Part shown: piece by piece, positions 36,001 to 39,000 of the stretch | Layout: every line of letters begins with the position of its first letter | Position numbering within the stretch: the first letter of the stretch is position 1 | Assembly: GCF_000026545.1 (NCBI RefSeq) | Contig: NC_011601.1 | Reading direction: 5' to 3' (one strand) | Source: Escherichia coli O127:H6 str. E2348/69 | Lineage (GTDB): Bacteria; Pseudomonadota; Gammaproteobacteria; Enterobacterales; Enterobacteriaceae | DNA length: 64,000 nucleotides | Program-made: the position numbers

Positions 36001-39000
36001 TCAGCGAGGCCGTCCAGGTGGAATCCCCCGGTCATCAGCGCCAGCACAAGTACGCTAAACAGTGCCGCCAGTGGTACGCCACACCATGCCTGCAGCACCA
36101 TGAAGACCAGCCCGCTAATCGCGCCAAGCAATAATCCAATCAAAGGAAAAGTAATAATACCGCGAGAATAATGCTCGAAATCCAGTCCCTGGGACCAGCG
36201 ACGCGGTACAGGCAGACGCGTAATAAATGAGAGCATCGCCCAAAATAATTTACTCATTTGATTTTTACTCCAATACCCGAAACCACCAGCCATACTTCAT
36301 TTGCCGCAGCGGCCAACTGCTGATTTACCCGCCCGGCAATATCACGAAAATGTCGTGCCAGACGACTCTCCGGCACAATCCCCATTCCCACTTCGTTAGT
36401 CACTAATACAACCTTTGCGGGGCAACGTTGGCAGGCAGCAATCAACGACTGAATCTCAGCATTAATCGCCTGTTCCATCGCCTGATAATCCCATTCATCA
36501 GGGTCTTTATCGCCGCCATAATCAAACAACAGATTAGTCACCATTGTGGTAACGCATTCCAGCAACACAGCCTCATTCGGGTTAATGTCTGCATGAATTA
36601 ATTCATCAAGATGTTGCCAGCGCTCCACTGTGCGCCAGTGCTCCGGGCGGCCTTGCCGATGATGTTCTATCCGTGCAGCCATCTCATCATCAAGGATTTG
36701 CGAGGTAGCGATATACAGAACCTGTGAAGAGTCCCCAATAAGCGCCTCTGCGTGGCGACTCTTCCCGCTCCGTGCGCCCCCCGTCACCAAAATCATCATA
36801 CCGACTCCTGATTCAATTGTATGATGGTATTCATTGAACAGAACAATGGATCCCCCACCGTTGCTGACCGCAAAACATTTACGCGATTAATACTGCGCGT
36901 AATATAATTAAAAATCCAGCATTCTCAATCCATTACGAAAGAAGATGGCATTGCGGAATAGCCAGACTTCCTCGTGTTAACGTCCGACAAAATGCGTCAT
37001 TGACAGCGGTTTCTCTGGCATGACAGATCTCATTCAGATAATGGATTAATGCTACAGCCCCACCAGCCGGACCATTCAGCAAACGGGCATTGTGTTCTGC
37101 AATCAAAATTACCGTCGTTCCCTCAGAATGAGCGAGCCATTCTGGTACGGATATCTCGCTTTCAGCTGCTATCAATAGCAGCACTGAATAATCGCTATAC
37201 GCATCTGATAACGATTGCACAGGCCCACCGTCAAAAGGCTGGAAATCTTGCTGCCAGTCCTCACCAACAAAACAGGTTATTGGCAATATTTCCGCCAGAT
37301 GTTTCGCCAGATCCACATCTCCAGATAAGAGGCAAAAAAGAGCTATCGATTCGGGTTTTATCGTTTTCATGCCCCTCGCCCTCCACTTAATTTCCTGTAA
37401 TGGCGGTCTGGTTGATAAGCCATGAAACAAGATTGCCACACCTTAAGTGCAGCCCTGGTGCCTGTCGGCACTGCGATGAAAGAACTAAATGATGCCGCCA
37501 TACCCTGATCCTTTCAGGATGGTAGGGGTATAAAGACGCGCCTGTACTCTACCGGACGCTTCCGGGCAACCCACTTCCCACCGAAGTTGTTGGTATTGAC
37601 TGACTGGCTGGTCTTCTGGCTTAGCGTCATCCTCTCCCGACCTTCCCAATCTCGCGATCAGTGGCATTTTCGGGTTTGTCAGCATTACAGCAGCGGGGGC
37701 TGCGAGGGATTTTCACCCTCTTCCCAGGCACAAATGTGCCACACCTGTCAGCGTATGTTATGAGCTGATTTCACTTTTCCCATAACAGGTAAATAACGTT
37801 AATTATTCATTGCAGAGTTTATTTAAACCGTCCTCTTTTTTTGGGGCATTTACTCTATACCGTTTCCATCGCCGCATTATCACTCACTTGCTGTCGATAC
37901 ACCTGCGGCGTAACCTGATAAGTCTGACGGAAAACTTTGCAAAAATAACTTGTTTGCGAAAAACCTAAATTACGCGCAATGCTGGCGATGCTCCAGTCAC
38001 TATGGCACAGTAACTCACGAGCGCTGGCCATCCGTTGTTGGTTTACCCACGCATTAAACCCGATTCCATGGTATTTCTTAAATAACTTACTGAAATAATA
38101 AGGGCTTAGATAAACGTGCGAGGCAACATCTTCCAGACGCAAATCGTCTGATAAATGCGCATCAATATAACGTAAAGCTTTTTTCATTTTATTGTCGTGG
38201 GGACCAGGCGCACGAGTCTGGCGCACCGAATCTGACTGAGATTTGTTCTCTTTAATAACCACAAAATTGAGTTGTTTTTTTAGGCAATTTTCTACAATCA
38301 ACTTCAACAAATCAGCAGAGGCCATAACTCTTGAGTAATCCATCTCAGGGACTTTGCGAAATTCATTAAGTAATTCGGGATCTGCCTGCCAGCAATCATC
38401 GACATTCAGAATATCGACCAAATCGACATCATCATTACGCAGACGAACTTGCCCGCACAATACAAAACCAACTAAATGTCCGGCGATTACCAGTGGAATA
38501 GAGAAATCGGTTATTAATCCGGCATGACAGCGATAAATACAAGGCTGATCGGATTTAGAGGCTTCCAGACCCCCACAACGATCGCTCATGCGACATCGAG
38601 TGCTCAGCTGAGGGTGTTGCCGCATCATCTGACAAAATGGAGTGAAGTTAAACAGCTCGGAAATTTCATCGCCGTGAATATTGACCACGACAACCGCAAG
38701 GCTGGTCGCCTGCGCAAAATCCTGCGCGATTTTATTAATGAGTTCTGAATTAAGTGTCGCCGCAGAAATCATGATAAAACCTCCCAGTTAATTTATTGTT
38801 ATAGCAAAACAATTGTTTTACATTTAATCTTCACATCATCCTTGATGATTTACTGACGAGAAGCACAAAGGACAATAACAAAAGCCTCCGTGAAGCGGGA
38901 GACTTTTTAATAAGTTCGGAAAGCAGATCACAAACAGTAAAAAAATAAACGTTTATAACTGCCAGATTATTTCGTTATTCACTGATTTCTTTAGGCGTTA

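Follow-up and report, generated by a model that had tools for sequence, protein, structure and literature searches.

A cobalamin riboswitch kept with remnants of cbiA and cbiG after collapse of the cbi operon in Escherichia

Introduction

What does a riboswitch regulate once its operon has collapsed? The pdu-cob locus of Escherichia coli O127:H6 str. E2348/69, an enteropathogenic (EPEC) strain, raises this question, as a cobalamin (B12) riboswitch stands there on the minus strand between pocR and a small open reading frame (ORF), with the salvage genes cobUST further on. We analysed a stretch of 64,000 nucleotides (nt) of contig NC_011601.1, referred to as the window, whose numbering is used throughout unless another locus is given. 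An earlier note on this DNA had read the locus as a pdu-cob region that lost its cbi genes and kept B12-responsive control over cobUST; the loss is borne out, whilst comparative evidence argues against control of the salvage genes as the reason why the riboswitch was retained. Instead, the supposedly unrecognised ORF is a truncated, fast-evolving cbiG remnant (hereafter cbiG') behind a leader ORF derived from cbiA (hereafter the mini-ORF). Across the genus, the sequence that has been kept open behind the riboswitch consists of this short leader and the reduced cbiG coupled to it, and not necessarily of cobUST. The best explanation, to which we give a probability of about 60%, is a translational switch of the Salmonella type that acts on the mini-ORF and cbiG'.

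Results

The riboswitch is the orthologue of the Salmonella cob leader

Two features make up the regulatory RNA:
Positions 37589-37763, minus strand: aptamer of the cobalamin riboswitch (RF00174, located with cmscan), with the B12 box inside it at 37606-37622
Positions 37502-37588, minus strand: expression platform, with an invariant CAACAACTTCGGTGGGAAGTGGGTTG block and a ribosome-binding-site (RBS) hairpin, defined from an alignment of 16 taxa

An Rfam scan of the window places the riboswitch where the earlier note had put it, with a score of 109.4 bits against a gathering threshold of 31.5 (E = 1.7e-26) and a match over the whole covariance model (positions 1-189 of 189). The motifs by which it was first recognised, the core GGGTGAAAATCCC, GCCACTG and the B12 box AAGCCAGAAGACCAGCC (37622-37606), are all present. 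The score is on par with those of Salmonella (106.9 bits) and Klebsiella, and the aptamer shares 82-85% identity with its counterparts in the leaders of Salmonella and Citrobacter. The E. coli leader (37767-37493) can be aligned at 82% identity to its Salmonella counterpart (L016, 11235-11518) right through the cbiA ATG (L016, 11510), and the riboswitch is the orthologue of the Salmonella cob-operon (pocR-cbiA) leader, as had been supposed. The element itself is ordinary: it belongs to a well-known family, and the RefSeq annotation of E2348/69, made with the Prokaryotic Genome Annotation Pipeline (PGAP), already has a cobalamin riboswitch between pocR and a 'hypothetical protein'. The aptamer most likely still binds the coenzyme adenosylcobalamin.

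The similarity extends into the platform, as E. coli and Salmonella have the invariant block in common and a near-identical predicted RBS hairpin (left arm 37514-37520, right arm 37502-37508), which adjoins the AUG. In all genera compared, 120-131 nt separate the B12 box from the start ATG. The hairpin is predicted from the single sequence, and when its helix is specified by hand it is paired in 78% of alignment cells, against 20-43% for slid registers.

Two remnant reading frames follow the riboswitch

Behind the platform lie two ORFs, where the earlier note had seen only one:
Positions 37367-37501, minus strand: mini-ORF of 44 codons that begins with the ancestral cbiA ATG, with an ATGA overlap (37367-37370) between its TGA and the following start codon
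Positions 36933-37370, minus strand: cbiG', 145 codons, a truncated and diverged copy of the CbiG N-terminus (RefSeq WP_000849051.1, 'hypothetical protein')

The start of the mini-ORF, MAASFSSFIAVPTGT, resembles that of CbiA, MAARHHAFILAGTGS, with a score that 0 of 2000 shuffles reach, and the first ~15 cbiA codons are kept. We considered the C-terminus of cbiF as the source of its 3' half (DRHYRK vs SHEYRK) and rejected it, since 434 of 2000 shuffles do as well and the two are not positionally homologous; a cbiF-derived end is real in Hafnia and E. fergusonii, unlike in the E. coli mini-ORF.

The second frame was first described as an ORF of 168 amino acids (aa), and a GTG-started ORF of that length does exist (36933-37439), but the frame probably begins only with the ATG of position 37370, which gives 145 aa and coincides both with the start of CbiG and with the RefSeq annotation. 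Its beginning, MKTIKPESIALFCL, compares with MNTVKPESIALFCL in CbiG. The NCBIfam profile for CbiG (NF004463) matches over positions 1-126 of 351 with 73 bits (E = 2e-20), below the cut-off of 546 bits, and cbiG' is 44% identical to residues 1-119 of Salmonella CbiG. It thus corresponds to the N-terminal third of that protein, from residue 1 to about 125-135. It has diverged considerably: there is a 7-residue deletion, and the motifs GATG, DPAVVVIDE, SGHxGGAN and PVITTATD, invariant in 12 enterobacterial CbiG proteins, are degraded. A Pfam scan of the ORF found no domain and a sequence search of the PDB no match. An AlphaFold2 model of moderate confidence (pLDDT, the predicted local distance difference test, 75.6) shows an alpha/beta fold, for which Foldseek returned only generic Rossmann-like matches that are uninformative (best E = 0.016). 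Relatives at E <= 0.001 number only 30 among 1.84 billion representative proteins, and consist of the Escherichia forms, that of E. fergusonii and fragments of real CbiG.

Selection acts on the RNA and on both reading frames

Among seven Escherichia lineages, mean divergence is 5.9% in the aptamer and 7.4% in the platform, against 13-21% in the ORFs, the spacers and the last part of pocR. Eight lineages all have a mini-ORF of exactly 44 codons, free of indels and with the ATGA overlap kept; cbiG' has 144-145 codons across Escherichia lineages and 136 in one E. coli form. Such constancy is not expected by chance: when 370 parsimony substitutions were placed on the tree in a neutral simulation, 0 of 3000 runs left both ORFs open throughout the eight lineages, and the mini-ORF, taken alone, stayed open in 74 of 3000.

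The two frames differ in what is being preserved. When the neutral expectation follows the mutation spectrum and leaves out changes that create stops, the mini-ORF has an omega of ~0.9, which is not significant; considering that it nevertheless stays open, selection on the mini-ORF is for its translation and not for its peptide. In cbiG', on the same basis, codons 1-70 have an omega of 0.45 (p = 1e-4) and the remaining ones 0.8 (p = 0.09). The pairwise ratio of non-synonymous to synonymous divergence (dN/dS) is 0.43-0.61 for cbiG', vs 0.03-0.19 for pocR, cobU, cobT and ldtA. Over all comparisons, E. fergusonii among them, cbiG' has a dN/dS of 0.3-0.6 at a dS that is normal or saturated, and values for its N-terminal half are 0.23-0.45. 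In comparison with E. fergusonii, dS is saturated (1.2-2.2) and the frame is still open, with a dN/dS of ~0.3-0.4. The N-terminal half of cbiG' is constrained as a protein, and selection maintains the RNA as well as the open state of both ORFs.

Lineages that separate the riboswitch from cobUST

PocR-anchored loci from 80 genomes fall into two classes of arrangement. In the first, which includes Salmonella, Citrobacter, Klebsiella, Yersinia and others, the riboswitch lies 250-350 nt past pocR and leads into cbiA-cbiF; the sole match to the E. coli ORF in these loci lies ~6.3 kb downstream, in cbiG (42-47% identity, with PocR at 85-90%). In the second, that of Escherichia, the riboswitch begins about 95 nt past pocR and is followed by the ORF and then cobU. 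This riboswitch-ORF-cobUST arrangement is present in E. coli, E. whittamii, E. marmotae and representatives of the cryptic clades. Among 5426 complete E. coli genomes, 643 (~12%) carry at least 80% of the pocR-riboswitch-ORF stretch.

If control of the salvage genes were what holds the riboswitch in place, the two should be retained together, and four lineages show that they are not. E. fergusonii (L090, 3608-4471) has pdu-pocR, a riboswitch of 112.9 bits, a mini-ORF of 49 codons and a 156-aa cbiG', and then ldtA, with no cobUST in between; the 156-aa form is found species-wide. Its mini-ORF runs from the cbiA ATG to the ancestral cbiF stop, 20 nt inside cbiG', and its ATG-to-ATG distance is 130 nt vs 131 nt in E. 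coli, such that the frame is different and yet would still bring ribosomes to the cbiG' start. In Enterobacteriaceae bacterium RIT691 (L058, 10967-12020), a riboswitch of 103.4 bits precedes one open frame in which a 59-codon linker joins the cbiA start to a CbiG-N-like domain; the fused frame ends near the end of that domain, and nac and cbl come next, with neither cobUST nor ldtA. E. albertii (L083, 3435-4877) has a riboswitch of 112.8 bits and both remnant ORFs intact, with cobU broken into two fragments (61-67% identity) and cobT gone between cobS and ldtA. Conversely, K-12-type E. coli have kept cobUST and lost the riboswitch; only the last ~300 nt of cbiG' remain, beside IS5. This pattern indicates that the riboswitch-ORF module travels with pdu-pocR and not with cobUST.

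Hafnia paralvei (L050, 11266-17504) offers a further arrangement, in which the riboswitch is followed by an in-frame fusion of ~24 codons of cbiA' to the last 85 residues of 'cbiF, and then by an intact, full-length cbiG.

Some observations made along the way concern these loci. In place of cbiH onwards, the H. paralvei locus carries on the opposite strand a UvrD-like helicase and a retron-Eco8/PtuA-like ATPase, which are defence-like and unrelated to cbi, and in E. fergusonii a glycyl-radical-type microcompartment cluster lies just past ldtA. Escherichia sp. MOD1-EC7003 (L037), labelled only as 'Escherichia sp.', has the complete Salmonella/Citrobacter-type arrangement, from cbiA onwards and with cbiG at +6.3 kb, and its PocR is only 84% identical to that of E. 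coli. One 'Citrobacter' metagenome-assembled genome holds an E. coli-type and a Citrobacter-type pocR locus together (L003, L015), which suggests a mixed bin, and a 383-nt contig of a Streptomyces assembly (L064) that is 98% identical to E. coli pocR is probably contamination.

The cbi operon collapsed in place

On the minus strand the order of the locus is pduF, pocR, riboswitch, ORF, cobU, cobS, cobT, ldtA and tRNA-Asn, with the pdu operon divergent on the plus strand. The features on either side of the riboswitch and remnant ORFs are:
Positions 37855-38772, minus strand: pocR, AraC-family regulator of pdu/cob, directly upstream of the leader (NCBIfam NF047788 TransRegPocR, 547 bits, cut-off 500; RefSeq annotation)
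Positions 37764-37854, minus strand: short pocR-to-aptamer spacer of 91 nt, from an alignment of spacers
Positions 36901-36928, minus strand: TTGAGA-16-TATATT, a sigma-70-like promoter site within the spacer that leads to cobU (10/12 consensus matches; a consensus match only)
Positions 36796-36830, minus strand: cbiP remnant, the last ~11 codons with the ancestral cbiP stop/cobU start overlap (GTATGATG), from comparison with the Salmonella cbiP-cobU junction
Positions 36254-36799, minus strand: cobU (NCBIfam NF004469, 247 bits)
Positions 35514-36257, minus strand: cobS (TIGR00317, 304 bits; RefSeq coordinates)
Positions 34423-35502, minus strand: cobT (NF000996, 467 bits)

Homology to Salmonella resumes at position 36830 (L089, 3970), 31 nt before the cobU ATG, with 78% identity over 131 nt, and the remnant there matches the Salmonella cbiP end, YTIMQQHQEPV*. 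The start of cbiA, the N-terminus of cbiG and the end of cbiP have therefore been kept in order, which implies that a collinear cbiA-cbiP operon collapsed in place. The deletion was smaller than the 17 kb or so first supposed: from the cbiA start to the cobU start there are ~14.1 kb in Salmonella vs 0.7 kb here, a loss of ~13-14 kb, an estimate built from measured Salmonella segments and an assumed cbiL length. Apart from the cbiA, cbiG and cbiP remnants, no cbi sequence was found in the 64-kb window; among the 5426 complete E. coli genomes, none carries Salmonella-like cbiA-D DNA and none represents a less-decayed intermediate. The 3' end of cbiP has also left a 12-codon, ATG-started ORF (36796-36834, minus strand) that overlaps the cobU ATG; its own ATG is ATA in E. 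whittamii, and so it is probably not maintained.

Conserved blocks of the cob control region, ~235 nt in Salmonella, Citrobacter and Klebsiella, are missing from the 91-nt Escherichia spacer, and the PocR-dependent control region is thus not there. As this Salmonella-type cob promoter region is missing, transcription probably arrives by read-through from pocR. At the other end, cobU begins 133 nt beyond the cbiG' remnant. The -35 part of its promoter-like site is conserved among Escherichia, and in K-12 nothing but the region of this site and IS5 lies upstream of cobU. No convincing intrinsic terminator was found between the aptamer (37589) and cobU (36799), and read-through into cobUST may contribute to their expression. 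A relay to these genes through Rho was considered and dropped, as there is no rut-like, C-rich and G-poor stretch between the riboswitch and cobU, where the transcript has more G than C throughout.

Discussion

How, then, would this riboswitch act? By analogy with Salmonella, adenosylcobalamin binding would probably close the hairpin over the Shine-Dalgarno sequence and AUG of the cbiA-derived start, on a transcript that probably enters from pocR. The direct output would be translation of the 44-codon leader ORF, and the ATGA stop-start coupling would pass control on to the 145-aa truncated CbiG-N-terminal protein. Any effect on cobUST would be indirect and partial, as cobU lies 133 nt further and behind a promoter-like site of its own.

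Several observations weigh against such a switch. The RBS hairpin is almost without covariation, with only one pair changed on both sides, and RNAalifold neither gave a clean consensus of the platform nor recovered the hairpin. Between pocR and the aptamer, no sigma-70-like site with 9/12 matches or more was found on the minus strand. Since cbiG' has its own GGAGG ~9 nt before its ATG, it could initiate independently of the mini-ORF. Finally, the RIT691 aptamer scores equally well in a locus without any recognisable B12 gene besides the remnant.

Could the riboswitch instead have been kept for B12 repression of cobUST, with the remnant ORFs as translated filler that relays control through transcriptional polarity or mRNA stability? 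The genes lie on the same strand with no convincing terminator in the way, and both the mini-ORF and the 3' half of cbiG' stay open although their peptides are near-unconstrained (omega 0.8-0.9), just as expected if premature stops were polar; moreover, cobUST follow the remnants in E. coli, E. whittamii, E. marmotae and the cryptic-clade representatives. On the other hand, a pure relay would have no need of the amino-acid constraint seen in the N-terminal half of cbiG', the 133-nt gap holds a 10/12 promoter-like site, and the transcript, with more G than C, offers no rut-like stretch. The lineages also speak against it: E. fergusonii, throughout the species, and RIT691 have no cobUST behind their riboswitch and open ORFs, in E. 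albertii riboswitch and ORFs stand beside a decayed cobU and cobT is absent, and K-12-type E. coli hold cobUST without the riboswitch. Considering this decoupling together with the promoter-like site of cobU, the riboswitch probably does not owe its persistence to control of the salvage genes, and we regard this explanation as unlikely. Another view would be that riboswitch and ORFs no longer have a function and are what is left of the deleted cbi operon, not yet decayed. The locus is certainly degenerate, with its cob control region missing, its cbi genes deleted and the invariant CbiG motifs lost; the element has disappeared altogether from most E. coli, and E2348/69 has a nonsense codon in pduC. 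Decay, however, should not have spared the aptamer and platform, which are two to three times better conserved than their flanks and score as high as those of Salmonella, nor should both ORFs be open in eight lineages (0/3000 neutral simulations) and cbiG' be open with dN < dS at saturated synonymous divergence from E. fergusonii. Indeed, a neighbour that truly is unconstrained, the cobU of E. albertii, has fallen apart within the same time, and mere inheritance thus seems very improbable.

The riboswitch might also act upstream, on pocR and pdu: as a B12 sensor in an mRNA that extends past the 3' end of pocR, it would alter the 3' end or the stability of this mRNA and so tie propanediol use to B12 supply. 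The lack of a promoter-like site in a spacer of only 91 nt would suit such an extension, as would the fact that the riboswitch is kept or lost together with pdu-pocR across lineages, and not with cobUST. Physical linkage alone explains this co-retention, however; no terminator-like structure follows the aptamer, and the conserved platform, cbiA start codon and coupled ORFs point to a translational output downstream. We give this possibility a chance slightly slimmer even than that of inert leftovers. A precedent for a B12 riboswitch beside pocR nonetheless exists in Listeria monocytogenes, where it controls the antisense RNA AspocR, and through it pocR, by terminating a non-coding RNA. The setting is similar, a cobalamin riboswitch in the pdu locus of a B12-using propanediol consumer, but the Listeria element is antisense to pocR, whereas that of E. 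coli is in sense, downstream of pocR, and followed by a start codon and ORFs.

The translational switch that we favour has its closest model in the cob (cbiA) leader of Salmonella enterica, which shares with the E. coli locus its place after pocR, 82% identity up to the cbiA ATG, the platform blocks, the predicted RBS hairpin and the first cbiA codons. The differences lie on either side: the E. coli locus lacks the upstream control region of ~235 nt, and has the 44-codon ORF and truncated cbiG in place of cbiA-cbiP. The riboswitches of S. typhimurium cob and E. coli btuB act on both translation and transcription (PMC5282855). The btuB leader belongs to the same Rfam family, RF00174, and controls translation initiation with secondary effects on the transcript (PMC5282855); it differs in locus and gene, and in being present in all E. 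coli, vs ~12% of complete genomes for the pocR-linked element.

What would be worth such control? It is possible, though we hold it only tentatively and at somewhat less than even odds, that cbiG' has been domesticated as a functional, B12-regulated small protein, and that this protein and not cobUST is the payload that keeps the riboswitch alive in Escherichia and its relatives. With CbiG, the cobalt-precorrin-5A hydrolase, it shares the start codon and N-terminal alignment, and differs in covering only the first third, with degraded motifs. As the module is always kept beside pdu-pocR, perhaps the protein links B12 scarcity to propanediol use or corrinoid handling in bacteria unable to make the corrin ring themselves. 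If cbiG' is indeed functional, it would represent a family of small B12-regulated proteins found only in Escherichia and its near relatives, whose carriers are pdu-positive strains, EPEC strain E2348/69 among them.

Regardless of what the protein does, three lineages with three different frame arrangements have kept a path for ribosomes from the start codon under riboswitch control into a reduced cbiG, with or without the salvage genes. This calls for caution: 'riboswitch upstream of gene X' should not be read as 'riboswitch regulates gene X'. The collinear decay of cbi in situ in Escherichia also bears on the old debate over B12 synthesis in enteric bacteria, its loss and its reacquisition. 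Our literature searches found no papers on this arrangement of riboswitch and remnant ORFs in E. coli.

Further features of the window

In pduC (41408-43009, plus strand), an in-frame nonsense codon at 43007-43009 removes the last 21 residues, beyond which the frame goes on as GERWEEIKNIPGALDPNEID*. RefSeq labels the gene a pseudogene in E2348/69, and with the nonsense codon this suggests that the propanediol dehydratase of the strain may be impaired. Three tRNA hits of equal score lie near the cob locus (29065-29137, minus strand; 30886-30958 and 33295-33367, plus strand), and the two that fall inside the inspected stretch are tRNA-Asn in RefSeq. A homologue of the small RNA STnc230 (RF02075, 76 bits; 38833-38916, plus strand) is situated between pduF and pocR and antisense to both, and has a counterpart at this position in the loci of Salmonella, Klebsiella, E. 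marmotae, E. albertii and E. fergusonii; a homologue of another small RNA, STnc240, lies at 61658-61732 on the minus strand.

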